Counted from the stretch's first letter, positions 9,692 through 64,000 are shown. The stretch is 64,000 nt of DNA from Escherichia coli (GCF_051903065.1 NZ_CP178438.1), one strand, 5' to 3'. Notes: generated from the letters alone by a model not told the origin. Made by a program: numbers and translations.

Positions 9692-10849
9692 ATGAACAGA
9701 AGAAGAAAGCTGTTAATACCGTTGTTATTCTGCGGCGCGATGCTCACCGCCTGCGATGACAAATCGGCGGAAAACACCGCCGCCATGACGCCTGAGGTCG
9801 GTGTCGTCACACTCTCCCCTGGGTCGGTCAATGTGTTGAGCGAATTGCCCGGTAGAACCGTTCCTTATGAAGTTGCCGAGATACGTCCCCAGGTGGGCGG
9901 TATTATCATTAAACGCAACTTTATCGAAGGCGATAAAGTGAACCAGGGCGATTCGCTGTATCAGATTGATCCTGCACCTTTACAGGCCGAGCTAAACTCC
10001 GCCAAAGGCTCGCTGGCGAAAGCGCTCTCTACCGCCAGCAATGCCCGCATCACCTTTAACCGCCAGGCATCGTTGCTGAAGACCAACTACGTTAGCCGTC
10101 AGGATTACGACACCGCGCGCACCCAGTTGAATGAAGCAGAAGCCAATGTCACCGTCGCCAAAGCGGCTGTTGAACAGGCGACGATCAATCTGCAATACGC
10201 GAATGTCACCTCGCCGATTACGGGCGTCAGCGGGAAATCGTCGGTGACCGTCGGCGCACTCGTTACCGCTAATCAGGCAGATTCGCTGGTTACCGTACAA
10301 CGTCTGGACCCGATTTATGTCGATCTCACGCAGTCGGTGCAAGATTTCTTACGCATGAAAGAAGAGGTCGCCAGTGGGCAAATCAAACAGGTTCAGGGCA
10401 GTACGCCAGTACAGCTCAATCTGGAAAATGGTAAACGTTACAGCCAGACCGGCACGCTGAAATTCTCCGACCCGACGGTTGATGAAACCACGGGCTCCGT
10501 GACGTTACGGGCGATTTTCCCCAACCCAAATGGTGACTTGCTGCCTGGCATGTATGTCACGGCATTAGTGGATGAAGGTAGCCGCCAGAATGTATTACTG
10601 GTGCCGCAGGAAGGCGTCACCCACAACGCCCAGGGTAAAGCAACGGCGCTCATTCTGGATAAAGACGATGTCGTGCAGCTACGCGAAATTGAAGCCAGCA
10701 AAGCCATCGGCGACCAGTGGGTTGTCACCTCTGGCTTGCAGGCTGGCGATCGGGTGATCGTTTCCGGTTTGCAACGCATTCGTCCGGGTATCAAAGCACG
10801 AGCAATTTCCTCCAGCCAGGAAAACGCCAGCACCGAATCGAAACAATAA
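9692..10849 (+). CDS. mdtE: RND efflux periplasmic adaptor MdtE
   Basis: 385 aa; lipoprotein signal (LLFCGAMLTAC); membrane-fusion-protein family. Confidence 0.95.
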   Translation: MNRRRKLLIPLLFCGAMLTACDDKSAENTAAMTPEVGVVTLSPGSVNVLSELPGRTVPYEVAEIRPQVGGIIIKRNFIEGDKVNQGDSLYQIDPAPLQAELNSAKGSLAKALSTASNARITFNRQASLLKTNYVSRQDYDTARTQLNEAEANVTVAKAAVEQATINLQYANVTSPITGVSGKSSVTVGALVTANQADSLVTVQRLDPIYVDLTQSVQDFLRMKEEVASGQIKQVQGSTPVQLNLENGKRYSQTGTLKFSDPTVDETTGSVTLRAIFPNPNGDLLPGMYVTALVDEGSRQNVLLVPQEGVTHNAQGKATALILDKDDVVQLREIEASKAIGDQWVVTSGLQAGDRVIVSGLQRIRPGIKARAISSSQENASTESKQ

Positions 10850-10873
10850 CGTTGCAGGCTTAAGGGGACTTTC

Positions 10874-13800
10874 ATGGCTAACTATTTTATTGATCGCCCG
10901 GTTTTTGCTTGGGTACTTGCCATTATTATGATGCTTGCAGGTGGTCTGGCGATCATGAACTTACCGGTTGCGCAGTATCCGCAGATTGCGCCACCGACCA
11001 TTACCGTCAGCGCTACCTATCCGGGTGCCGATGCGCAAACGGTAGAAGACTCGGTCACTCAGGTGATTGAGCAAAATATGAATGGGCTTGATGGCCTGAT
11101 GTACATGTCTTCAACCAGTGATGCGGCGGGTAATGCCTCTATCACTCTGACCTTCGAGACTGGGACATCTCCTGATATCGCACAGGTTCAGGTGCAAAAT
11201 AAACTGCAACTCGCTATGCCTTCATTACCTGAAGCAGTGCAGCAGCAGGGGATTAGCGTCGATAAATCGAGCAGTAATATCCTGATGGTAGCGGCGTTTA
11301 TTTCTGATAACGGCAGCCTCAACCAGTACGATATCGCGGACTATGTAGCGTCTAGTATCAAAGACCCGCTAAGCCGTACCGCGGGCGTTGGTAGCGTACA
11401 GCTCTTTGGTTCCGAGTACGCCATGCGTATCTGGCTGGACCCGCAAAAACTCAATAAATATAACCTGGTACCTTCCGATGTTATTTCCCAGATTAAGGTG
11501 CAAAACAACCAGATTTCCGGTGGTCAACTGGGTGGCATGCCACAGGCGGCAGACCAGCAGCTAAACGCCTCGATCATTGTGCAGACGCGTCTGCAAACGC
11601 CGGAAGAATTTGGCAAAATCCTGTTGAAAGTTCAGCAAGATGGTTCGCAAGTGCTGCTGCGTGATGTCGCCCGCGTCGAACTTGGGGCGGAAGATTATTC
11701 CACCGTGGCGCGCTATAACGGCAAACCTGCTGCCGGGATCGCCATCAAACTGGCTACCGGAGCAAACGCCCTGGATACCTCGCGGGCAGTCAAAGAGGAG
11801 CTGAACCGCTTATCAGCCTATTTCCCCGCAAGTCTGAAGACGGTTTATCCTTACGACACCACGCCGTTTATCGAAATTTCTATTCAGGAAGTTTTCAAAA
11901 CACTGGTTGAGGCTATCATCCTCGTCTTCCTGGTCATGTATCTGTTTTTGCAGAATTTCCGTGCCACAATCATCCCGACGATTGCCGTACCGGTGGTTAT
12001 TCTCGGGACGTTTGCGATCTTGTCGGCGGTCGGTTTCACCATCAACACGTTAACTATGTTCGGGATGGTGCTGGCGATAGGGTTACTGGTGGATGACGCC
12101 ATCGTAGTGGTGGAGAACGTCGAGCGTGTCATTGCGGAAGATAAGCTACCGCCGAAGGAAGCGACGCATAAATCGATGGGGCAGATCCAACGTGCGCTGG
12201 TCGGTATTGCCGTTGTTCTTTCCGCAGTGTTTATGCCGATGGCCTTTATGAGCGGTGCAACCGGGGAGATCTACCGCCAGTTCTCCATCACGCTGATCTC
12301 CTCCATGCTGCTTTCAGTATTTGTGGCAATGAGCCTGACCCCTGCCCTGTGCGCCACCATTCTGAAAGCCGCGCCGGAAGGCGGTCATAAACCTAACGCC
12401 CTGTTCGCACGCTTCAACACGCTGTTTGAAAAATCAACTCAGCACTATACCGATAGCACCCGCTCGCTGTTGCGTTGTACCGGTCGCTACATGGTGGTCT
12501 ACCTGCTGATTTGCGCCGGGATGGCGGTGCTGTTCCTGCGCACGCCGACCTCTTTCTTACCAGAAGAGGATCAGGGGGTATTTATGACCACCGCGCAGTT
12601 ACCTTCCGGTGCCACCATGGTTAACACCACGAAAGTGCTGCAACAGGTGACGGATTATTATCTGACTAAAGAGAAAGATAATGTCCAGTCGGTGTTTACC
12701 GTTGGCGGCTTTGGCTTCAGCGGCCAGGGGCAAAACAACGGCCTGGCGTTTATCAGTCTCAAGCCGTGGTCTGAACGTGTCGGTGAGGAAAACTCGGTTA
12801 CCGCGATCATTCAGCGGGCAATGATTGCGCTAAGCAGTATCAATAAAGCCGTCGTCTTCCCGTTCAACTTACCCGCGGTGGCTGAACTGGGTACCGCGTC
12901 AGGTTTTGATATGGAACTGCTGGACAACGGTAACCTGGGGCACGAAAAACTAACCCAGGCACGAAACGAGCTGTTATCACTGGCAGCGCAATCACCGAAT
13001 CAGGTCACCGGGGTACGCCCGAACGGCCTGGAAGATACGCCGATGTTCAAAGTGAACGTCAACGCCGCGAAAGCTGAGGCAATGGGTGTGGCGCTGTCTG
13101 ATATCAACCAGACAATTTCCACCGCCTTCGGCAGCAGCTACGTGAACGACTTCCTCAACCAGGGGCGGGTGAAAAAAGTGTATGTCCAGGCAGGCACGCC
13201 GTTCCGTATGTTGCCGGATAACATCAATCAATGGTATGTACGCAACGCCTCTGGCACGATGGCACCGCTTTCTGCCTACTCGTCTACCGAATGGACCTAT
13301 GGTTCACCGCGACTGGAACGCTACAACGGCATCCCGTCAATGGAGATTTTAGGTGAAGCGGCGGCCGGGAAAAGTACCGGTGACGCAATGAAATTTATGG
13401 CAGACCTGGTCGCTAAACTTCCGGCAGGCGTCGGCTACTCATGGACCGGACTGTCGTATCAGGAAGCGTTATCCTCAAATCAGGCTCCCGCGCTATATGC
13501 CATTTCACTGGTCGTGGTGTTCCTCGCCCTCGCCGCACTTTATGAGAGCTGGTCAATTCCGTTCTCGGTGATGTTGGTTGTTCCGTTAGGCGTCGTTGGC
13601 GCATTACTGGCCACCGATCTGCGCGGCTTAAGTAATGACGTCTACTTCCAGGTTGGTTTGCTGACCACCATCGGGCTTTCCGCCAAGAACGCCATCCTGA
13701 TTGTCGAATTTGCCGTTGAGATGATGCAGAAAGAAGGGAAAACGCCGATAGAGGCAATCATCGAAGCGGCGCGGATGCGTTTACGCCCAATCCTGATGAC

Positions 13801-13987
13801 CTCTCTGGCCTTTATTCTCGGCGTGCTGCCGCTGGTTATCAGTCATGGTGCCGGTTCTGGCGCGCAAAACGCGGTAGGTACCGGCGTGATGGGCGGGATG
13901 TTTGCCGCAACAGTGCTGGCAATTTACTTTGTTCCGGTCTTTTTCGTTGTAGTGGAACATCTCTTTGCCCGCTTTAAAAAAGCGTAA
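10874..13987 (+). CDS. mdtF: RND efflux inner-membrane transporter MdtF (AcrB family)
   Basis: 1037 aa; AcrB-like N-terminus ([27 protein letters not shown]). Confidence 0.95.
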
Positions 13988-14002
13988 CGTGTAAATGAGA
14001 GT

Positions 14003-14040
14003 AAGGTTGAACGTGAAGGTTCAGCCTTACTCTTTCCTGC
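14003..14040. terminator. Stem-loop terminator between convergent mdtF and gadW
   Basis: Inverted repeat gtaaggttgaac...gttcagccttac immediately after the mdtF stop. Confidence 0.5.
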
Positions 14041-14349
14041 TAACCATTCACCACTCAACAACCAGCTAACCGTCAGGAATACCAGGCTTAGTACACAGCA
14101 CTGAAAGTAGAAACCACTCCAGCCATTCGTCATCAATTTGAACAGCACAATACTGACCCACATTCCCGTAATCGTATGAATTGTCAGCTTAATAATCCCA
14201 AACATGCCTAGTCTTTTCCTCCTGAAAATACCTATACCGCCTGGCAAACTGCGAAAGAGAACTAGCCGGTAGCCCGGCAGAAATCATCAGGGAAGAGTTT
14301 CACATGAAGCAGGTGTGAGATCCTGACCAATATTCAAATGCGAAATATG

Positions 14350-15078
14350 TCAGGAAAAGGTACCTGGCGAATGTTGCGCAAACTGATGTGGCGTTACACC
14401 ATAATATTGTCGAAATGTGTTTATAAAGTACGATGTACTGCTATAGCCACATTTTTCCGCAATAGTATGCAGAGGAATTTGACGTAACTCGAGTAATCGT
14501 CTGGCCATCGACATCCTGGAGGCGAGTAATATTTTACTGAAACAGGTATTTTCATCCTGCAACTTTTTTTTGATTAGACTCTCGCTGGTATACATTCTTT
14601 CCGCGATATCGCGCAGATACCAACGTTTAGCGATATCAAAGCTAATAAGGCGTTCAACTTTTCCTGAAACAGTACTGATGCTATTGAAAAGTAAGGGGAT
14701 CAGTTCTTTCTTATGAGAAAACATCGATAAACAGGAAAGATAGAGCATTTTGCTCAGTATCGGCGAATTTACCCCGGAGTCATTGAAACTATCAAAAATC
14801 GCCGTCACCAGCGGCATGGGGGGTGACTGGTTAATTAACAGACGGTCTTTGCTATGTAACCCTAAATTGCGTGGTAGCTGACGAATATTTTGTAAGTAAT
14901 GGCAAACTGTCAGCTCATCGATATCCAGCCGTCGCGTATCCGGTGAACAAAACGCAAAATCGTCTGCCAAATTTTTATCCAGCAGCAGGATACTCTCGTT
15001 ATGCAGCGATATTTTTTGCTGTTCATGATAAATATCGAATGAACGACGAATGAGGATCACCGAGCAGACATGAGTCAT
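14350..15078 (-). CDS. gadW: AraC-family acid-resistance regulator GadW
   Basis: 242 aa; AraC-type HTH C-terminus; paired with gadX. Confidence 0.9.
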   Translation of the reverse strand: MTHVCSVILIRRSFDIYHEQQKISLHNESILLLDKNLADDFAFCSPDTRRLDIDELTVCHYLQNIRQLPRNLGLHSKDRLLINQSPPMPLVTAIFDSFNDSGVNSPILSKMLYLSCLSMFSHKKELIPLLFNSISTVSGKVERLISFDIAKRWYLRDIAERMYTSESLIKKKLQDENTCFSKILLASRMSMARRLLELRQIPLHTIAEKCGYSSTSYFINTFRQYYGVTPHQFAQHSPGTFS

Positions 15079-15323
15079 GATTATCCCTTATATTTCATAC
15101 TGCGATTATTTCAATTTCAGTATACTAATGAAATGATGCCAGACTGTTTCTTAGCGCAAAAACTGCCAGATTTGGTAGGACCAAAATTTATCCACAAAGT
15201 AGTTTTGCATAACAGTTAATTGATAATAAGTAAATGCAACACGAATATATTTTCGCACAGCGTATAGCTTATGTTTATAAAAAAATGGCTGATCTTATTT
15301 CCAGTAAAAGTTATATTTAACTT

Positions 15324-15429
15324 ACTGAGAGCACAAAGTTTCCCGTGCCAACAGGGAGTGTTATAACGGTTTATTAGTCTGGAGACGGCAGACTATCCTC
15401 TTCCCGGTCCCCTATGCCGGGTTTTTTTT
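15324..15429 (+). ncRNA. gadY: GadY small RNA
   Basis: Sequence ACTGAGAGCACAAAGTTTCCCGTGCCAACAGGGAG...CCCGGTCCCCTATGCCGGGTTTTTTTT matches my recollection of GadY; intrinsic terminator at the 3' end; -10-like TATATT just upstream; opposite strand abutting the gadX stop. Confidence 0.75.
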
Positions 15430-15445
15430 ATGTCTGAGTAAAACT

Positions 15446-16270
15446 CTATAATCTTATTCCTTCCGCAGAACAGTCAGTGCCGTAAAAATTCCCTTGCGCA
15501 ACAATACTTGCCGCCGAGTCACGGTTCGACAATCTCTGCGCCGATCGCTCCTGATACTCTGTGGGCGTCATCCCATAATAATTTCGAAAGACGTAAATGA
15601 AATACGACACGCTGTGATATCCACAGGATACTGCAACTCGCTTAATTGAAAAACCATGTATAACAATAAGTTGCAAAGCACGTTTCATTCTACACTCAGT
15701 AAGCAACTGTGAATATGATGTCTCTTCTTCGCGCAATTTTTTCTTTAACAGACTTGGACTCATCAACAGCTCGCTGGCGATTCGGGCTAGTGTCCACTCA
15801 TGGGCGATATTATTATTGATAACCGTACAAACTCGTGTTCGCATGTTCGGTTGTAAAACGTTCAGAAGCAGCGGTATAAAGTGCTCATCCTCAAGAAAAA
15901 CAGATAACAACGCAAAGATTAATGCTCTTTTACGTAGCATTTCTGCATAGCGAAGATTCTTATTCTGCGATAGTTGCGCAACTTCCTGAAAAACAGGAAT
16001 ATCTCTGCTACAGTGATGAACGAGTAATGAAGAAACTTTTTTATGTGCATGAAGATTTAATGCCTCCTCCTTGAGCATCGGGAGAAATAATGAAAGCGTG
16101 TCCCTTGACACGAATACAAAATTTTCAACACACTTATCTACTCGAATTTGGCTTGCATCCGCAAAAACCAGGTCACCGCCATTAAAATAGCGATATTCAC
16201 CATTAACCATGGTGAGAATATATTTATGTCTTGCATACGCAATTAGACAATTCCCATGTAGTGATTGCAT
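15446..16270 (-). CDS. gadX: AraC-family acid-resistance regulator GadX
   Basis: 274 aa; AraC family; downstream of gadA. Confidence 0.9.
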   Translation of the reverse strand: MQSLHGNCLIAYARHKYILTMVNGEYRYFNGGDLVFADASQIRVDKCVENFVFVSRDTLSLFLPMLKEEALNLHAHKKVSSLLVHHCSRDIPVFQEVAQLSQNKNLRYAEMLRKRALIFALLSVFLEDEHFIPLLLNVLQPNMRTRVCTVINNNIAHEWTLARIASELLMSPSLLKKKLREEETSYSQLLTECRMKRALQLIVIHGFSIKRVAVSCGYHSVSYFIYVFRNYYGMTPTEYQERSAQRLSNRDSAASIVAQGNFYGTDCSAEGIRL

Positions 16271-16585
16271 AGTTGACTTAATATTACATAAACATATTAC
16301 TGTTTATTAATGTAGCACGCCGCCCTCTTAAGTCAAATTGATTGATAAATAAATTTAAACGAAGCGGGAGAACAGGATGATAATGTGTGATGTTCTACGG
16401 GCAGGATGACTGGATTTATAATACAAATACGTGTTTAAGAACGCAGGGAAATTAATAGTAAGCAAATAATCCCTTTTCGTGACATTAAAGGTAATCGCTA
16501 CATTTAATAAACATTCATATAACATATATCTTATCAACACGATGAATAGACAGCCAATATATTATTGCGATTAATAAGCAACCGA

Positions 16586-16626
16586 ATGCCCAGCTGTTTT
16601 TTTAAAGGCTGGGCATTCGGTTTTTA
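16586..16626 (-). terminator. Rho-independent terminator after gadA
   Basis: Hairpin aatgcccagc...gctgggcatt with a flanking T-run just past the gadA stop. Confidence 0.55.
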
Positions 16627-16639
16627 CAACGTTATGTTA

Positions 16640-18040
16640 TCAGGTGTGTTTAAAGCTGTTCTGCTGGGCAATACCCTGCAGTTTCGGGTGATCGCTGAGA
16701 TATTTCAGGGAGGCTTTGTAGTCTTCCAGCAACAGTTCAGCAAAGTCCATTTCGAAGCCGCGACGACACATAATGCGCATCACCACGATGTCGGTGGCTT
16801 CACCGCCGAGAGTGAAGGCCGGAACCTGCCAGCCGCGCAGACGCAGACGTTCAGAGAGGTCGTACAGGGTGTATCCCGGATCTTCACCATCTTTCAGTTT
16901 GAAGCAAACTGCCGGGATGCCTTCGTCCGGGCGACCCGTACAGATGAACTCATACGGCCCCAGTTTGGCGATTTCATCCGCCAGATAAGCGGCAACCTGG
17001 TAAGAGGCGTTCTGTACTTTGGTATAGCCTTCACGACCGAGGCGCAGGAATTCATAGTACTGTGCAATTACCTGACCCGCCGGGCGGGAGAAGTTGATGG
17101 CAAAAGTACCAATCTGACCCCCCAGGTAGTCAACGTTGAACACCAGTTCCTGCGGCAGCGCTTCTTCGTCACGCCAGATAACCCAGCCGCAGCCCAGCGG
17201 AGCCAGACCGAATTTATGGCCTGAAGCACTGATCGATTTCACACGCGGCAGGCGGAAGTCCCAGACGATATCCGGGGCGACGAACGGTGCCAGAAAGCCA
17301 CCGCTGGCGGCGTCGATGTGCATGTCGATGTCGATACCGGTGTCGGCCTGGAATTTATCCAGTGCATCGTGCAGCGGTTGCGGGAACTCATAGTTACCGG
17401 TGTAGGTCACGCCGAAAGTCGGCACCACGCCGATGGTGTTTTCGTCGCAGGCTTCAATCATGCGTTTCGGGTCCATAAACAACTGACCGGGGCGCATAGG
17501 GATCTCACGCAGCTCCACATCCCAGTAGCGGGCGAATTTATGCCAGCAGATTTGTACCGGACCGCACACCAGGTTTGGTTTATCCGTTGGTTTGCCTGCA
17601 GCTTCCATACGCTTGCGCCAACGCCATTTCATCGCCATCCCGCCGAGCATACAGGCCTCGGAAGAACCAATGGTGTTGGTGCCAACGGCCTGACCATTTT
17701 TCGGCGCAGGCGCATGCCACAGATCGGCAACCATATTTACGCAACGCAGGTCGATGGCTGCGGATTGCGGATATTCTTCTTTGTCGATCCAGTTTTTATT
17801 GATCGACAAATCCATCAATTTATGGACGTTTTCGTCGTCCCAGGTCTGGCAGAAAGTGGCCAGGTTCTGACGAGCGTTGCCATCAAGATATAATTCATCA
17901 TTGATAATCTGGAATGCGACATCATCGCGCATTTCGTGCAGCGGAAATCGTTTTGACTCCGCGATAGTAGAAATGGCCTTTGCGCCAAAACGTGAATCGA
18001 GTAGTTCTGAGCGGAAATCCGTTAACAGCTTCTGGTCCAT
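16640..18040 (-). CDS. gadA: Glutamate decarboxylase alpha (PLP-dependent)
   Basis: 466 aa from [19 protein letters not shown]; called gadA rather than gadB because of gadX linkage. Confidence 0.9.
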
Positions 18041-18119
18041 TTCGAACTCCTTAAATTTATTTGAAGGCAATAAAAAAGTAGGATTTATCCGCAATGGAAG
18101 CAAGGCATTACAGGCTTAA

Positions 18120-18139
18120 TTTAAATAACAAAATCCTAA
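18120..18139 (-). promoter_or_regulatory. GAD box (GadX/GadW/GadE binding site) upstream of gadA
   Basis: Reverse complement reads TTAGGATTTTGTTATTTAAA, the conserved 20-bp GAD box, about 90 bp upstream of the gadA ATG. Confidence 0.6.
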
Positions 18140-18250
18140 GCAGAAAAACGACTTTTTATAATATAAACATTTAACATGATAATATTAAAAACAGACTTTA
18201 TTATCATAATAAAAATCGCCCAAACATTCCTGTTCGGGCGATCAAATTAA

Positions 18251-19648
18251 TTATTGTTTATCCTGCATATACGGCGTGTACACCCCGTTCAGACTGTGCA
18301 GGAAAGCTACGATATCATCCACATCCTCCTGCGGCAGCTCTTTGCCTACCTGATAGCGCAACATCAGCTTCACCGCCCCGTCCAGCGTCGGCACGTCACC
18401 GCGATGGAAGTACGGTGCCGTTAAAGCAACGTTACGTAAACCGGGTACTTTCTGACGCAATTTATCACGCTCTTCTTTAGTAACATTCATACGACCAATA
18501 TCCGCCGCCGTAATTTCACCAAAGTTAAAGTCTTTTTTCAGCCCCAACGGTTCGAAGGAACGTCCGCCGAGAATAATACCACCATGACAAGTTGCACATT
18601 TATTATCTTTAAATAATTGATAGCCTTTTTTCTGTTGCGCCGTCAGCGCATTCTCATCTCCACGCAACCATTTATCAAATGGGGAATCCGGCGTAATTAA
18701 TGTTTTCTCAAATTCAGCAATGGCATCAGTAATATTTTCGCCACTGAAACCTTGCGGATAGACTTCGAGGAACTGCGCTTTAAGCCGCGGATCTTTTTCC
18801 AGCTTGGCAATAATTTCGTCCCAGGATTTTGACGCCATTTCAATCGGGTTCAACGGCGGTCCACCAGCCTGATCCTGCAATGTTGCCGCACGGCCATCCC
18901 AGAACTGCTCAACGTTAAATACTGAGTTAAATACCGTCGGCGCGTTAATCGGCCCAACTGCGCCACCAACACCAATTGATGTTTTTCTGCCATCGACGCC
19001 CCCCGCATTCAACGCATGGCAATGAGCGCATGAAATGGTGCTATCAGCCGATAAACGGGGATCGTGATACAGCGCAAAGCCCAACGCCACTTTTTGCGCA
19101 TCGGTAGGCAGTTTTTGCGGGATGGGCTGCACCGGTTCATTGCGATGCTCCGGAGCAGTATCATTGCTGGCGTAATATTCCGCGCGCTGTTTTGCAATCC
19201 AGGCCAGTATTTCCGCCCGCTCTTCATCACTCACCTTACCCGCCCAGTGAAGCGCGGTATAACGCGTTGGTGGCATAGTTTCATACTGCATCACCCATTC
19301 AATCTTATTCAGATCGCTTTGCGAAACGGGTTTATCAGCCAGCAGTGCCGCACGCACGGCCTCGAGGTTAAAAGATTTATATCCAAGCTTAATGTCGTAA
19401 TCCATCAACTGTTTCGCGCCAGGAATATAATAATAGGCGGGTAATTCTGCCGAAGGCGTGTGGCAATAGTCGCATCCTTTTTCGCGGAGAAAGCCTAAAA
19501 CCTTATTATTTTCACTGACAGCAGATGCCTGAACATCGGCCTGTTTACTGCGTTTATTATCGTGGTACCACACATAACCAGATAACCCTAAATAGCAAAT
19601 CGCGACGCCAGCCAGGCCGATCGCGGTAATACGTGAGACCATTTTCAT
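18251..19648 (-). CDS. yhjA: Cytochrome c peroxidase (di/tri-heme), YhjA/Ccp
   Basis: 465 aa; several CxxCH heme-binding motifs (CDYCH, CAHCH, CATCH); N-terminal membrane anchor. Confidence 0.9.
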   Translation of the reverse strand: MKMVSRITAIGLAGVAICYLGLSGYVWYHDNKRSKQADVQASAVSENNKVLGFLREKGCDYCHTPSAELPAYYYIPGAKQLMDYDIKLGYKSFNLEAVRAALLADKPVSQSDLNKIEWVMQYETMPPTRYTALHWAGKVSDEERAEILAWIAKQRAEYYASNDTAPEHRNEPVQPIPQKLPTDAQKVALGFALYHDPRLSADSTISCAHCHALNAGGVDGRKTSIGVGGAVGPINAPTVFNSVFNVEQFWDGRAATLQDQAGGPPLNPIEMASKSWDEIIAKLEKDPRLKAQFLEVYPQGFSGENITDAIAEFEKTLITPDSPFDKWLRGDENALTAQQKKGYQLFKDNKCATCHGGIILGGRSFEPLGLKKDFNFGEITAADIGRMNVTKEERDKLRQKVPGLRNVALTAPYFHRGDVPTLDGAVKLMLRYQVGKELPQEDVDDIVAFLHSLNGVYTPYMQDKQ

Positions 19649-19755
19649 TATTCTTCCCTCACGGTGGTGAGTTATTGTGACCCAGAAAATTTTCCAGAAT
19701 GCTGCAAACGTCTCTGCGAGACAAAGCCATCATAAAAAACAGGGAGATACGCTTT

Positions 19756-19769
19756 TTGATAGGAATCAA
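19756..19769. promoter_or_regulatory. FNR-box-like site TTGATaggaATCAA upstream of yhjA
   Basis: Perfect match to the FNR consensus TTGAT-N4-ATCAA about 110 bp upstream of the yhjA start. Confidence 0.55.
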
Positions 19770-20021
19770 TCAATTACATGAATATAAACTATCAATAAGA
19801 TAGCCTGTGCCTATTACCCAGATCAGGAATGGCATATCATGATTGCGGCGAGAGCAGGATTGAATGTTCTGAAAATGAAAAACAACACGAAATCTGTATT
19901 TTTATAAATTCCATTGATATTAGTGCGTTATATTTTTTGACAGGTTAATAAACGTGATCCACCGCACGCTTTGTCGCCCACCAGGCGGAGCGAATGACTA
20001 CCCTTAAAGAAAAGCCGATAA

Positions 20022-21701
<1,680 letters not shown>

Positions 21702-21704
21702 TAT

Positions 21705-21745
21705 TTTTACAGCCAGCCGCTAACTTCCTGCTGGCTGTAAAATTA
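21705..21745. terminator. Bidirectional stem-loop between treF and yhjB
   Basis: Inverted repeat acagccagc...gctggctgt between the two convergent stop codons. Confidence 0.5.
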
Positions 21746-21751
21746 TCCTCT

Positions 21752-22354
21752 TCAGGAGGAGATATTTAACATCATTGCCGCCTGGGTGCGATTTTTCACT
21801 TCCAGACGGCGATACAGGGATTCCAGATGCGCTTTTACCGTTCCGGTACTGATATTCAGCGCTCTGCCGATCTCCTTATTTGATTCGCCCGCCGCTAACA
21901 TGGTTAAAATCTCCCGCTGGCGGGCGCTTAACGATTTGAGATCTTTAATGTCCTTTTCCGGCGTCGTCCGCCAGTCTCCAGGCAGAAACATCATCCCCAT
22001 CGCCGCACTATTTACCGCCAACGCAAATGTCTCGACGGTTGAATCACGAGGCACAATGGCCAGCACATTAAAATGAATAACTTCCTGTAACCACCGTTTA
22101 TTGCAATCCGTCGCCGTGATTAACACCTTAACCTCAGGAAACTGCACCACGGTTTTTTGCAGTAACCAGTAGCAAAACTCACCATCCTGATCGCCATCGA
22201 GCATAACTAAGGCTTCAGGGTAACTTTCCAGCTTTTGCCATAACTCGTCTGCCTGACTGGCCCCCTGAATACTCACTCCTGGAATACGCTGCTGTAAACT
22301 GATTTTCATTCCATGAATAAATATTGACTGCCTGTCAAACATGACTATTTGCAT
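21752..22354 (-). CDS. yhjB: LuxR/FixJ-family response-regulator-like protein YhjB
   Basis: 200 aa; C-terminal LuxR-type HTH (EILTMLAAGESNKEIGRALNISTGTVKAH). Confidence 0.85.
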   Translation of the reverse strand: MQIVMFDRQSIFIHGMKISLQQRIPGVSIQGASQADELWQKLESYPEALVMLDGDQDGEFCYWLLQKTVVQFPEVKVLITATDCNKRWLQEVIHFNVLAIVPRDSTVETFALAVNSAAMGMMFLPGDWRTTPEKDIKDLKSLSARQREILTMLAAGESNKEIGRALNISTGTVKAHLESLYRRLEVKNRTQAAMMLNISS

Positions 22355-22518
22355 AACTGAATCTCCACCTGAATACGTTAAAAAGACTTAAGTAGTGGAA
22401 GGGTATTACCCGCGAGAAAAAATAAGAATTCGCCATTTGGCGGTGGCCATTCTACAGAGATGACGCGTAGAAAATAGTTACCGATATAAATAGTTACAGC
22501 TAAACGCCTGAAATTACA

Positions 22519-22527
22519 TGTCGAGGG
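22519..22527. repeat. Target-site duplication TGTCGAGGG (left flank of IS)
   Basis: Identical 9-mer directly flanks both ends of the IS (also at 23585-23593). Confidence 0.8.
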
Positions 22528-23584
22528 GGCTTTGTTGAATAAATCAGATTTCGGGTAAGTCTCCCCCGTAGCGGGTTGTGTTTTCAGGCAATACGCACGC
22601 TTTCAGGCATACCTGCTTTCGTCATTTTGTTCAGCGCTCGTACCAGGGCCATAGCCTCTGCAACCTGACCATCGTAGTCACGCAGTGTCAGTGAACCCCC
22701 GAACAGCTGTTTTACCCGGTACATCGCCGTTTCCGCTATCGAGCGACGGTTGTAATCTGTTGTCCATTTCCACCGCGCATTACTCCCGGTCATTCGCTGA
22801 TTAGCCACTGCACGGTTACGGTCTGCATATTCACCGGGCCAGTAACCCGCACCTTTTCGGGGAGGGATAAGCGCGCTGATTTTCTTACGCCGCAGTTCAT
22901 CGTGACATAGCCGGGTATCGTAAGCGCCATCGGCGGCGGCTGACCTGATTTTCCGGTGGGTTTGCCGGATTAACCCGGGGAAGGCCTCTGAGTCCGTAAC
23001 GTTGTTCAGCGACAGGTCAGCGCAGATGATTTCATGTGTTTTACTGTCAACGGCGAGATGCAGCTTACGCCAGATACGGCGGCGTTCCTGGCCATGCTTT
23101 TTGACTTTCCACTCGCCTTCACCGAAGACCTTCAGCCCGGTGGAATCAATTACCAGGTGTGCGATTTCACCCCGGGTGGGCGTTTTGAAACTGACATTAA
23201 CCGACTTTGCCCGCCTGCTGACACAGCTGTAATCCGGGCAGCGTAGCGGAACGTTCATCAGAGAAAAAATGGAATCAATAAAGCCCTGCGCAGCGCGCAG
23301 GGTCAGCCTGAATACGCGTTTAATGACCAGCACAGTCGTGATGGCAAGGTCAGAATAGCGCTGAGGTCTGCCTCGTGAAGAAGGTGTTGCTGACTCATAC
23401 CAGGCCTGAATAGCTTCATCATCCAGCCAGAAAGTTATGGAGCCACGGTTGATGAGGGCTTTATTGTAGGTGGGCCAGTTGGTGATTTTGAACTTTTGCT
23501 TTGCCACGGAACGGTCTGCGTTGTCGGGAAGATACGTGATCTGATCCTTCAACTCAGCAAAAGTTCGATTTATTCAACAAAGCC
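22528..23584 (-). mobile_element. IS903-group (IS5 family) insertion sequence, complete, 1057 bp
   Basis: Terminal 18-bp inverted repeats GGCTTTGTTGAATAAATC at both ends; single transposase ORF; 9-bp direct duplication of the target; length and IR match my recollection of IS903/IS102. Confidence 0.85.
22584..23507 (-). CDS. IS903-type DDE transposase
   Basis: 307 aa from a GTG start (VAKQKFKITNW...); the track's 322-aa version starts at an upstream TTG; exact start uncertain. Confidence 0.8.
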   Translation of the reverse strand: MAKQKFKITNWPTYNKALINRGSITFWLDDEAIQAWYESATPSSRGRPQRYSDLAITTVLVIKRVFRLTLRAAQGFIDSIFSLMNVPLRCPDYSCVSRRAKSVNVSFKTPTRGEIAHLVIDSTGLKVFGEGEWKVKKHGQERRRIWRKLHLAVDSKTHEIICADLSLNNVTDSEAFPGLIRQTHRKIRSAAADGAYDTRLCHDELRRKKISALIPPRKGAGYWPGEYADRNRAVANQRMTGSNARWKWTTDYNRRSIAETAMYRVKQLFGGSLTLRDYDGQVAEAMALVRALNKMTKAGMPESVRIA

Positions 23585-23593
23585 TGTCGAGGG
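23585..23593. repeat. Target-site duplication TGTCGAGGG (right flank of IS)
   Basis: Perfect copy of the 9-mer at 22519-22527. Confidence 0.8.
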
Positions 23594-51420: not shown

Positions 51421-51425
51421 GCACG

Positions 51426-51456
51426 AAAAAGGCCGCAGAGTTTCACCTCTGCGGCC
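51426..51456 (-). terminator. Rho-independent terminator of ldr copy 1 (also ends bcsG region)
   Basis: Minus strand: GGCCGCAGAG-gtgaaa-CTCTGCGGCC followed by TTTTT. Confidence 0.6.
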
Positions 51457-51506
51457 TGATCCGGGCGCAAATTGCCATTACGGCAGCCTGACGCCCGCAT
51501 GACACG

Positions 51507-51614
51507 TTACTTCCGTTTGTTCAGCCAGTTCACGATCATACTGGCAAGAATGCCAGCAATGACCGGAGCCGCTAAATCATGCCAGAAGGCCATGCCCAGC
51601 TCTGCGAGCGTCAT
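51507..51614 (-). CDS. ldrD: Ldr-family type I toxin peptide, copy 1 (35 aa)
   Basis: MTLAELGMAFWHDLAAPVIAGILASMIVNWLNKRK; one hydrophobic helix with a basic C-terminus, as I recall for the E. coli Ldr toxin family. Confidence 0.8.
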   Translation of the reverse strand: MTLAELGMAFWHDLAAPVIAGILASMIVNWLNKRK

Positions 51615-51662
51615 ATAGCCGCCTGTGTTGTAATGACAACGTTTCGCGGCTATTCTTGTATT

Positions 51663-51728
51663 GTTTGGATGCAAGAATGGCCCCCGTGATGTTGTCAGGT
51701 GCATACCTGCAACGTGCGGGGGTTTTCT
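51663..51728 (+). ncRNA. rdlD: Rdl antisense RNA, copy 1 (approximate)
   Basis: Opposite strand about 50 nt upstream of the ldr ATG; sigma70-like promoter TTGTAA-17-TATTCT at 51628-51656; ends in hairpin CCCCCG...CGGGGG plus TTTT at 51723-51726. Boundaries inferred. Confidence 0.5.
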
Positions 51729-51908
51729 CTCTCCAGCAACCAATACCACCAGGGATTAAGCCCCCGCAACATTGCGCCTCACCGGAACCCTTCCGGCTTG
51801 CCGCTGATTCTACGACTGTTTTTCTGTTCCGGAATCCGTCACGTCTTCACTCTGTGCTGCGCATTCCGCAGAATATTATCCGCTTGCAACCGTTGCATTT
51901 TTCTTACG

Positions 51909-51939
51909 AAAAAGGCCGCAGAGTTTCACCCCTGCGGCC
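51909..51939 (-). terminator. Rho-independent terminator of ldr copy 2
   Basis: Same hairpin plus T-run as copy 1. Confidence 0.6.
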
Positions 51940-51989
51940 TGGTCCGGGCGCAAATTGCCATTACGGCAGCCTGACGCCCGCATGACACG

Positions 51990-52097
51990 TTACTTCCGCT
52001 TGTTCAGCCAGTTCACGATCATACTGGCAAGAATGTCATCAATGACCGGAGACGCTAAATCATGCCAGAAGGCCATGCCCAGCTCTGCGAGCGTCAT
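51990..52097 (-). CDS. Ldr-family toxin peptide, copy 2 (variant, 35 aa)
   Basis: MTLAELGMAFWHDLASPVIDDILASMIVNWLNKRK; differs from copies 1 and 3 at three residues (A to S, A to D, G to D) from four clustered nucleotide changes. Confidence 0.75.
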   Translation of the reverse strand: MTLAELGMAFWHDLASPVIDDILASMIVNWLNKRK

Positions 52098-52145
52098 ATA
52101 GCCGCCTGTGTTGTAATGACAACGTTTCGCGGCTATTCTTGTATT

Positions 52146-52211
52146 GTTTGGATGCAAGAATGGCCCCCGTGATGTTGTCAGGTGCATACCTGCAACGTGC
52201 GGGGGTTTTCT
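52146..52211 (+). ncRNA. Rdl antisense RNA, copy 2 (approximate)
   Basis: Same promoter and terminator-like hairpin as copy 1, shifted by one repeat unit. Confidence 0.45.
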
Positions 52212-52391
52212 CTCTCCAGCAACCAATGCCACCAGGGATTAAGCCCCCGCAACATTGCGCCTCACCGGAATCCTTCCGGCTTGACGCTGATTCTACGACT
52301 GTTTTTCTGTTCCGGAATCCGTCACGTCTTCACTCTGTGCTGCGCATTCCGCAGAATATTATCCGCTTGCAACCGTTGCATTTTTCTTACG

Positions 52392-52422
52392 AAAAAGGCC
52401 GCAGAGTTTCACCCCTGCGGCC
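52392..52422 (-). terminator. Rho-independent terminator of ldr copy 3
   Basis: Same hairpin plus T-run. Confidence 0.6.
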
Positions 52423-52472
52423 TGGTCCGGGCGCAAATTGCCATTACGGCAGCCTGACGCCCGCATGACACG

Positions 52473-52580
52473 TTACTTCCGCTTGTTCAGCCAGTTCACG
52501 ATCATACTGGCAAGAATACCAGCAATGACCGGAGCCGCTAAATCATGCCAGAAGGCCATGCCCAGCTCTGCGAGCGTCAT
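52473..52580 (-). CDS. Ldr-family toxin peptide, copy 3 (35 aa)
   Basis: Peptide identical to copy 1; the 5'-UTR region differs from copies 1 and 2. Confidence 0.8.
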   Translation of the reverse strand: MTLAELGMAFWHDLAAPVIAGILASMIVNWLNKRK

Positions 52581-52628
52581 ATAGCCGCCTGTGTTGTAAT
52601 GGCAACGTTTCGCGGCTATTCTTGAGTG

Positions 52629-52694
52629 GTCTAGGTTCAAGATTAGCCCCCGTGGTGTTGTCAGGTGCATACCTGCAACGTGCGGGGGTTTTCT
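52629..52694 (+). ncRNA. Rdl antisense RNA, copy 3 (approximate, divergent 5' part)
   Basis: Promoter and 3' hairpin conserved, but the first ~25 nt (gagtggtctaggttcaagattagccc) differ from copies 1 and 2 (gtattgtttggatgcaagaatggccc). Confidence 0.45.
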
Positions 52695-53055
52695 CTCTCC
52701 AGCAACCAATGCCACCAGGGTTAAAGCCCCCGCAACATTGCGCCTCACCGGAACCCTTCCGGCTTGCCGCTGATTTTACGATTGCTTTTTACTGTCAGCA
52801 CCCTGCAATCTTCCTCATTGCGTGATGCCTTCCAGCTTAATTTCTTAATTTGCAATAGTTGCAGTTCATATCCGGGCTGACTCCAGACTGGTAGTGAAAT
52901 GCGCAATTTTGTAGAATTGCGCCTCCTCGCGACCTCCCCAGTGAATCTGTTGCCTCATTTTTTACATACTGCGTATTCGACTTCTCCACCTGTTGCGCAA
53001 GAGAAACTGGGTTTATTCATTTTTGCGAGGCCGACTTCTTTCTGGACAGGACTTT

Positions 53056-58454: not shown

Positions 58455-58565
58455 TGCCGGATGCGGCGTTAACGCCTTATCCGGCCTACAAAATCGTGCA
58501 AACTCAATACATTGCAGAATTTTCGTAGGCCTGATAAGCGGAGCGCATCAGGCAGTTTTGCCTTT
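58455..58565. repeat. REP/BIME element in the dppA-dppB intergenic region
   Basis: Two inverted REP units (TGCCGGATGCGGCGTTAACGCCTTATCCGGCCTAC ... GTAGGCCTGATAAGCGGAGCGCATCAGGCAG). Confidence 0.65.
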
Positions 58566-60765: not shown

Positions 60766-60853
60766 TAGGTCGAATAAGGCGTTCACGCCGCATCCGACAA
60801 TAAGTGCGGTGCCGTTGCCTGATGCGACGCTGACGCGTCTTATCAGGCCTACG
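60766..60853. repeat. REP/BIME element
   Basis: REP-like palindromes (CGAATAAGGCGTTCACGCCGCATCCGACA ... CGTCTTATCAGGCCTAC). Confidence 0.6.
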
Positions 60854-60907
60854 TCGAGTCGAACCTCCCGGCCCCCGGAGGTTCTCTTCCTCATGGGCTG
60901 CAGATGC

Positions 60908-60936
60908 AAAAAAGCCTGCTCGTTGAGCAGGCTTTT
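60908..60936 (-). terminator. Rho-independent terminator downstream of proK
   Basis: Perfect hairpin AAAAGCCTGCTCgttgaGCAGGCTTTT with flanking T-run just 3' of the tRNA. Confidence 0.7.
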
Positions 60937-60942
60937 CGAATT

Positions 60943-61019
<77 letters not shown>

Positions 61020-62802: not shown

Positions 62803-63056
62803 GCAAACAAACCCTGGACAAACAGGTGATAACACCCTGCTTAGCGGCTTTTCAGGCCCAGCAGGGGAAAAGTGCGGAGGTAGTCAGATAAGTAAAATCT
62901 ACACGCGCGAATAAGTAGACCACAGCAAAGGGAAAAAGTGTGGGGAAAGAGTGTGCATGAAGCACAAATTTACAAAAGTGCAAGTCCGGAATAGACCATT
63001 TTAACGGATTAACGACTATTCAGAGATAGGTTGGGCCAGGATGCTGGCCCAGTAAC

Positions 63057-63605
63057 TTACTCATAGGTGATGGAAAAATTGACAAGGGCATTCGCTGTGC
63101 CACCAGTGGCCTGAGTGTTGACGACCACATAACTCGCCTGGTAGTGAAGCGACGTGGTTTCGCCATCAATCGCCCATTCAATCGGCGTTCCGCTGGAGCC
63201 TTTGGGAACTTGCTGCGTTCCTTTATCGTCCTCTATCTTCAACGCAACACCCGTTGCGCCACCAGCCTCAAGGGCAAACATGGAATCATCATCGCTGTCC
63301 GACTGACTGTCCATCTCAACGGTCGCTTTGGATATCCCATCGCACTCTTTGAGTTCAATGGTGAAATCTTTCTTGCTCAACACCGTACCGACTGCCGCAG
63401 GTTTTTGCAGCGTCATTGTTCCCATATCGACTTCGAGATCGCTTTTTTCCATCTCGCAAGCTTTAGTGGTGATAGTGATGGAGAAATGAATATCCCCTGC
63501 CGGGCCAAGATCCGTCGCCGCATTCACCCCGCAGGCAAACAGACTCAAACTGGCGATGCCGCTATGCAGCAATAGTTTGAATTTCATGGCATCACTCCAT
63601 TTCAA
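63057..63605 (-). CDS. lpfE: Fimbrial minor subunit (LpfE-like)
   Basis: 182 aa with signal peptide (MKFKLLLHSGIASLSLFACGVNA); last gene of a fimbrial operon next to eptB; Lpf assignment is by locus position. Confidence 0.65.
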   Translation of the reverse strand: MKWSDAMKFKLLLHSGIASLSLFACGVNAATDLGPAGDIHFSITITTKACEMEKSDLEVDMGTMTLQKPAAVGTVLSKKDFTIELKECDGISKATVEMDSQSDSDDDSMFALEAGGATGVALKIEDDKGTQQVPKGSSGTPIEWAIDGETTSLHYQASYVVVNTQATGGTANALVNFSITYE

Positions 63606-64000
63606 GATATATGGTCGTTACGCCTTCAAACGTCCCGCCTTTAGGCGCTTTACCCGTCGTGCTAATCGGTAAAGCCAGCAGTCGAATCGCGGCATTGCGG
63701 TGAGTTTTAGAATCCAGGCTGCTCAAATTTAATAACGTGGTGCTGCTTGCATCATTCGGTACCAAAATTTTGCCGCTGGAATCTTTCACCAGTACGCCAA
63801 TATCGGGGTTGTCCATATCCACCGCTCGGGGATCGTCAGCATTGGTTGCCCCCTCAAGGCGCAACGAGACTTTGATACCATCCGAGATATTGTTGCAATC
63901 AAAGCCGAGGTTAATTTCTTGCTCTGTCGCACCTTCAGGCATTTGCCCTTGTCTGTTTTTAAACGCTGAGGAGGGGAATTCACCAAATGGCACATCCAGC
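63592..64000 (-). CDS. lpfD: Fimbrial subunit/adhesin (LpfD-like), 3' portion only
   Basis: C-terminal 133 aa visible; fimbrial-like beta-strand-rich sequence; stop overlaps the lpfE start; gene runs off the window. Confidence 0.55.
   Translation of the reverse strand, partial: LDVPFGEFPSSAFKNRQGQMPEGATEQEINLGFDCNNISDGIKVSLRLEGATNADDPRAVDMDNPDIGVLVKDSSGKILVPNDASSTTLLNLSSLDSKTHRNAAIRLLALPISTTGKAPKGGTFEGVTTIYLEME

Follow-up and report, generated by a model that had tools for sequence, protein, structure and literature searches.

The closest described system is GadY of Escherichia coli K-12 (b4452; RF00122), a known Hfq-binding small RNA whose gene lies between those of gadX and gadW and is read from the other strand. 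In K-12, GadY is detected as species of 105, 90 and 59 nt with a common 3' end (PMC3050690, citing Opdyke 2004). It overlaps the gadX transcript at its 3' end and pairs with it there, raising both gadX mRNA and GadX protein (PMC3050690). When GadY is overexpressed, the gadXW mRNA is processed to separate and more stable gadX and gadW transcripts (PMC5029454); the GadY-directed cleavage of the bicistronic gadX-gadW message goes back to Opdyke 2004 and 2011 (summarised in PMC5029454 and PMC3919570). RNase III takes part in this processing, and without RNase III cleavage continues at slightly shifted positions, which points to another double-strand nuclease (PMC3919570, PMC5029454).

Other antisense systems share parts of this pathway. 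Among chromosomal cis-antisense RNAs, lambda OOP/cII-O and the type I antitoxins Sok, IstR-1 and OrzO also form a perfect or extended antisense-mRNA duplex that is cut by RNase III, and OOP and OrzO show the same residual, shifted cleavage without RNase III (PMC3919570). In these systems cleavage represses the target, whereas the products of GadY-directed cleavage are more stable and expression rises (PMC5029454). GadY has further described connections. The gadY gene is a direct target of AppY, whose motif, ATGSCWGM, reportedly overlaps the -35 of gadY (PMC10057817). Binding of the GadY RNA by Hfq is known for K-12 (PMC3050690, PMC11300174). GadY also titrates CsrA, promoting pgaABCD-dependent biofilm formation (Parker 2017, cited in PMC10057817), and is reported to pair in trans with the sdiA mRNA (PMC11300174).

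The window analysed here, a stretch of 64,000 nucleotides of E. coli DNA, almost certainly carries the unaltered gadY gene of the species, encoding the known Hfq-binding small RNA, at 15324-15429 on the + strand, and the mechanism described for K-12 is expected to apply to it. The RNA is the one already described and no variant, and our analysis revealed no sequence evidence contradicting this explanation. An Rfam cmscan of the whole window returned a single GadY match (RF00122) at 15321-15434 (+), scoring 150 bits (E 8.3e-32) against a gathering score of 45 bits. This match covers positions 1-114 of the 114-position covariance model, with each base equal to the consensus. Alignment to K-12 gadY (b4452), the check proposed in the first-pass annotation, gave 0 differences over 106 nt (106/106 identical), with no divergence in the overlap region.

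The neighbourhood is likewise that of K-12. The MG1655 annotation places gadY (b4452) at 3664864-3664969, gadW at 3663890-3664618 (-) and gadX at 3664986-3665810 (-), and the window is collinear with K-12 without gaps over 5710-22527 (16,818 nt, 134 mismatches), so that subtracting 3649540 from a K-12 coordinate gives the window position. The primary form of gadY (105-106 nt) occupies 15324-15429 (+). It is followed by a 16-nt spacer (15430-15445), identical to K-12, and then by the stop codon of gadX (15446-16270, -), which encodes a 274-aa AraC-family activator of glutamate-dependent acid-resistance genes. On the other side, a 245-nt divergent control region (15079-15323) separates gadY from the start of gadW (14350-15078, -), the second cistron of the gadX-gadW mRNA, encoding an AraC-family regulator of 242 aa. 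The 16-nt and 245-nt spacings are those of K-12. The K-12 conversion, the mechanical ORF list and the RefSeq annotation of strain 23CRST027 agree on the coordinates of gadW and gadX, and both reading frames are intact, full length and without stops.

The gadY gene and the gadX coding sequence do not overlap; gadY overlaps only the transcribed region downstream of the gadX coding sequence. Since gadY is cis-encoded, its RNA is a perfect complement of the stretch of gadX-gadW mRNA that follows gadX, which places the target site at 15324-15429 on the - strand, 17-122 nt downstream of the gadX stop codon. From the published lengths, the 90- and 59-nt forms would start near 15339 and 15370, respectively. 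The first-pass annotation had described GadY as abutting the 3' end of gadX on the opposite strand, and the 150-bit RF00122 match, the identity to K-12 at 106/106 positions and the 16-nt spacer bear this out. Its start, 15324, is exactly the annotated 5' end of gadY. Its end, 15446, lies 17 nt beyond the annotated 3' end: the span takes in the 16-nt spacer and reaches the final base of the gadX stop codon.

With these elements in place, the pathway described for K-12 can be mapped onto the locus. In stationary phase or mild acid, gadY would be transcribed from a promoter with a weak -35, reportedly RpoS-dependent and activated by AraC-family regulators including AppY. An intrinsic terminator of its own would end the transcript 16 nt short of the gadX stop codon, and the RNA would pair with the gadX-gadW mRNA just downstream of gadX to give a double-stranded region. 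RNase III and at least one other endonuclease would cut this duplex, splitting the bicistronic mRNA and letting more stable gadX and gadW mRNAs accumulate. More GadX, and more GadW, would then raise expression across the acid-resistance regulon, including gadA and gadBC. For this strain, we infer from the K-12 literature that GadY is transcribed, pairs with its target, directs its cleavage and affects acid resistance. The sequence prerequisites found in the window are the complementarity itself, undisrupted gadX and gadW genes, and a minus strand free of called terminators between the two; as these are present and unchanged, the published mechanism should apply here. RpoS, Hfq, RNase III, AppY and EvgA/YdeO are encoded outside the window. 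The earlier statement that GadY stabilises gadX mRNA is supported, and the literature refines it to a directed processing of the gadX-gadW transcript (PMC5029454, PMC3919570).

Identity to K-12 carries little weight as a signal of constraint. At the background rate of 134 mismatches in 16,818 nt, about 0.85 differences are expected in 106 nt, and zero differences were rejected as a signal. The absence of differences from K-12 is therefore unremarkable, and the signal is carried by the population comparison. The gadW-gadX intergenic region is present in 5413 of 5426 complete E. coli genomes, always on the chromosome. We compared segments of 99 nt, for which one mismatch drops a genome below the 99% identity band, so that this band holds the genomes that are mismatch-free over the aligned stretch. 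The GadY segment (15324-15422) was matched in 5412 of the 5426 genomes, 5353 of them without a mismatch (98.9%). The gadW-proximal intergenic segment (15100-15198) was matched in 4368 genomes and mismatch-free in 2168, and the segment directly upstream of gadY (15225-15323) was matched in 5396 and mismatch-free in 936. The segment directly downstream, comprising the spacer and the 3' coding end of gadX (15430-15528), was matched in 5261 genomes, 523 of them without a mismatch and 1363 at 90-95% identity. The mismatch-free share is thus 98.9% for GadY versus 10-40% for adjacent segments of equal size.

Individual lineages show the same pattern. In JA0257 and EC28, whose intergenic region is 97% identical to the one here, all 11 differences lie at or before 15255: 11 fall in the 180 nt nearest gadW and 0 in the 171 nt of promoter and gadY (Fisher p = 0.0009). 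Within the spacer, position 15444 is variable in strain O152:H23. A genus-level scan used an exact 22-mer from the GadY middle hairpin against one genome per bacterial species, an exact-match design under which the lack of a match in E. albertii, E. fergusonii and E. marmotae does not equal absence of the gene. The matches were five Escherichia representatives (two titled E. coli, together with E. whittamii, E1V33 and MOD1-EC7003), each with an RF00122 score of 123-150 bits. Across these five, GadY has accumulated 2 substitutions and 1 inserted A; upstream of about -70, and in the spacer next to gadX, the sequences diverge freely. On these comparisons, the GadY RNA is evidently under very strong purifying selection. 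Loss of the locus was also seen: in E. coli KFu015, from river water (L008 4001-4820), the gadW-gadX intergenic region breaks off after 61 nt directly at an IS1A element, which is itself followed by a truncated ccp, and gadY, gadX and gadA are lost in this IS1-associated deletion.

This degree of invariance bears on what GadY is selected for. Complementarity in cis needs no sequence conservation, so the extreme invariance is not explained by the cis mechanism alone. It may be, tentatively, that the constraint comes from trans targets or partners such as CsrA and Hfq reading most of the 105 nt, or from a signal on the gadX-gadW strand that is read by the second endonuclease. A broader proposal, that GadY is selected mainly for its action in trans (CsrA titration and Hfq-dependent pairing, for example with sdiA, affecting biofilm and conjugation) and that its antisense role is one among several and possibly secondary, is a real though minority possibility. 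Pairing in cis would survive any sequence, yet GadY is mismatch-free in 98.9% of genomes against 10-40% for the adjacent segments, and it is nearly unchanged across the cryptic Escherichia clades. The published CsrA titration and biofilm effects (Parker 2017, in PMC10057817) and the sdiA pairing (PMC11300174) point in the same direction, as does a GGA motif that tops the middle hairpin of GadY (CUGGAGAC). However, invariance could arise equally from either strand, through GadY stability and Hfq binding on one or through the function of the gadX 3' and gadW 5' UTRs, or nuclease recognition, on the other. The effect on gadX-gadW in cis is moreover the best-documented activity experimentally (PMC5029454, PMC3919570). 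Selection in trans is compatible with an unaltered gadY acting as in K-12, and the two are not exclusive.

If the locus itself is intact, regulation could still depart from K-12 through its control region, its protein partners or factors acting in trans. The putative gadY core promoter was placed at 15285-15318 (+) by sequence reading and identity to K-12. A -10-like hexamer, TATATT (15313-15318), matches TATAAT at 5 of 6 positions and ends 5 nt before the gadY +1. The candidate -35, TGATCT (15290-15295), is weak and is set off by a 17-nt spacer; the two hexamers are presumably the -10 and -35 of gadY. The AppY motif, ATGGCTGA, lies at 15285-15292 and overlaps the candidate -35. The core promoter is invariant in divergent E. 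coli lineages, and the -10 and a GGCTGATCTTAT block are kept in the cryptic Escherichia clades. A sigma-70 consensus scan called no promoter for gadY, returning 6 sites in the region versus 6.1 in shuffled sequences, so the promoter assignment draws on the identity to K-12 and the published AppY motif. The promoter had been called intact, which holds for its sequence, identical to K-12 from -84 to +1, though not as an independent detection by the sigma-70 scan. The missing call would fit the reported RpoS dependence of gadY. Expression of gadY was reportedly found to be RpoS-dependent by Opdyke in 2004, and the title of a 2008 report by Tramonti refers to divergent gadY-gadW promoters.

Over the whole 367-nt gadW-gadX intergenic region, a single position differs from K-12, at 15239, where A is found here and G in K-12. 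This position lies 85 nt upstream of the gadY +1 (-85), and its A is common to JA0257 and EC28; the 99-nt segment that contains it is identical in no more than 936 of 5396 genomes. The gadY gene with exactly these 245 nt, under its own promoter, complemented a gadY deletion under AppY overproduction (PMC10057817). The protein products differ from K-12 at a few residues, Q196K and R267C in GadX and E34D, E100D and N110K in GadW. The 99-nt segments on both sides of gadY differ from K-12 and match an O157:H7 genome exactly; in O157:H7 strain PV15-279, GadY and the 99-nt segments on either side are 100% identical to the window. In other O157:H7 genomes the 367-nt intergenic region has one base different from the window (99.7%), and the best match to the window as a whole is 23CRST027, not O157. 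Compared with the K-12 gadY locus, the sequence of the RNA, its strand, neighbours, spacings, terminator and core promoter are thus the same, and the differences are A versus G at 15239, the two substitutions in GadX and the three in GadW.

These differences are the basis for supposing that the locus is intact but does not function as in K-12, whether through trans factors (an rpoS defect, absence of AppY) or through the changes in GadX and GadW. The trans factors are encoded outside the window, and AppY, being prophage-encoded in K-12 (PMC10057817), may be absent elsewhere; with the five residue changes and the one base at 15239 in the gadY-gadW control region, this is what such a reading has in its favour. 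We nevertheless consider it very improbable. Both 99-nt segments flanking gadY are exactly common to an O157:H7 genome, and the segment at the gadX 3' end, which includes codon 267 but not the Q196K site, is mismatch-free in 523 genomes, so that its allele is no lesion private to this strain. Two other lineages also have the A at 15239, and the core promoter and the RNA are unchanged. An unaltered gadY working as in K-12 is therefore still the preferred explanation.

The use of gadY as a positive control for K-12-like regulation, suggested in the first-pass annotation, is harder to sustain. The gene is identical to that of K-12, but the control is a weak one, as GadY is mismatch-free in 5353 of 5412 genomes and its flanks are O157:H7-like. 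Because GadY is invariant across E. coli, neither its presence nor its identity can mark regulation as K-12-like. Informative variation is found in the adjoining control region, in GadX and in GadW.

The 3' end of the gene is equally well defined. A terminator scan located the intrinsic terminator of GadY at 15403-15429 (+), with the layout CCCGGT-CCCCTAT-GCCGGG followed by T8. The stem spans 15403-15421, with 6 pairs, 5 of them G-C, and a 7-nt loop, and continues into TTTTTTTT. Both the minimum-free-energy fold and the Rfam consensus contain this hairpin, and the terminator is unchanged in 7/7 aligned sequences. The terminator had been described as intact, and this is confirmed: the stem and the T8 tract on the + strand are those of K-12. 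A U-tailed Rho-independent terminator is the usual Hfq-binding module. On the minus strand, the scan called no terminator at the gadY locus or between gadX and gadW; read in that direction, the stem is followed by AAGAGGAUAG, with no U-tract. This is consistent with the reported co-transcription of gadX and gadW by read-through (PMC5029454, PMC3919570).

The 105-nt GadY sequence folds into three hairpins that match the Rfam consensus, at -28.6 kcal/mol, with the GGA motif at the top of the middle one. The fold showed no unusual stability relative to shuffled sequences (z = -0.64; 50 of 200 shuffles folded equally well). In the alignment, 98.2% of cells in the Rfam structure are paired and 26 of 28 pairs are invariant, the sequences being near-identical, and 0 compensatory changes were found among these highly similar sequences. 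The 2 variable pairs are disrupted, without compensation, in E. whittamii and E1V33, so that covariation speaks neither for nor against the structure. As neither stability nor covariation lends support, the identification of GadY is grounded in homology and not in structure. That the hairpin and T-tract form only a bidirectional terminator or a gadX 3' structure, with no independent small RNA, would suit the location, since a terminator would be expected at about this distance (16 nt) from the gadX stop codon, but this reading was rejected as scarcely credible: the U-tract follows the stem on the + strand only, the minus side (AAGAGGAUAG) received no terminator call, the whole 114-position GadY model is matched, about 80 nt of it lying upstream of the hairpin, conservation across clades extends to the -10 and the surroundings of the -35, and the detection of three GadY RNA species in K-12 (PMC3050690) effectively refutes it there.

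The wider setting of the gene differs from that of K-12. The window is near-identical to E. coli 23CRST027, which was isolated from human faeces in Ecuador, with the first difference at 17804. Compared with K-12, yhiD, hdeB, hdeA, hdeD, gadE, mdtE, mdtF, gadW, gadX and gadA are all intact. The island's other two small RNAs, ArrS (8445-8514, -) and GadF (9452-9542, +; Rfam ES205 at 9471-9542) are 100% identical to their K-12 counterparts. The annotation of 23CRST027 has a 'hypothetical protein' at 9354-9632 (-), overlapping GadF; it is probably spurious. A chu/shu haem-uptake cluster at 1-5709 (shuT, hutW, hutX, chuY, shuU and an ATPase) adjoins yhiD. Within it, chuY (3231-3853) is frameshifted, its N-terminal half lying in frame 0 and its C-terminal half in frame 2, and it is a pseudogene in the near-identical RefSeq genome. 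In 23CRST027, slp-dctR-chuS-chuA lies immediately upstream of the region equivalent to the window, which puts the chu cluster between dctR and yhiD, within the acid fitness island. The K-12 arrangement, with dctR directly adjoining yhiD and no internal haem genes, is not the one found here.

An island of about 22 kb that includes chu is described for EDL933 and O145:H28, versus 13.6 kb in K-12 (PMC9144400). The window thus resembles the O157:H7 EDL933-type island in having the chu cluster inside it, and differs from the 13.6-kb K-12 type (PMC9144400). The accessory DNA that had been noted as flanking the island is real, consisting of chu and IS903B, but chu lies within the island and does not merely flank it.

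Several other features of the window lie at a distance from gadY. An IS903B element (IS5-like, 1057 bp) at 22528-23584, absent from K-12, sits between yhjB and rcdB (yhjC) and is bounded by a 9-bp target duplication, TGTCGAGGG, at 22519-22527 and 23585-23593; in the near-identical genome, the transposase of the element carries a frameshift annotation. At 51423-52795, the type I toxin-antitoxin locus ldrD/rdlD comprises about 2.8 tandem copies with a period of 483 bp and 96% matches, with Rfam rdlD matches at 51663, 52146 and 52629 and three annotated Ldr toxin genes, compared with one copy at this position in K-12. Further Rfam matches are ES036 (CssrF) at 58490-58532, naRNA4 (CssrE) at 60768-60849 and tRNA-Pro (proK) at 60946-61019, and local copy-number differences from K-12 were seen at about 60854-60961. 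Collinearity with K-12 stops after eptB, and at 62986-64000 lpfE and a fimbrial protein (long polar fimbria) replace yhjX.

The identification of gadY has a practical side. Among the non-K-12 genome rows listed, no RefSeq/PGAP gadY feature was found, though the gene is present and identical; an ncRNA feature for gadY was seen only in the K-12 record. Automated annotation appears to omit gadY unless an RNA-family scan is run. In biological terms, a non-K-12 strain carries an unaltered gadY-gadX-gadW module in an EDL933-type acid fitness island, which has little import beyond annotation. The size of the conservation contrast is only a mildly interesting by-product, and it points to additional sequence-specific constraints on GadY. 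Were one of these a signal that the second endonuclease reads on the gadX-gadW strand, the recognition element of this nuclease could be defined in part from the invariant positions.
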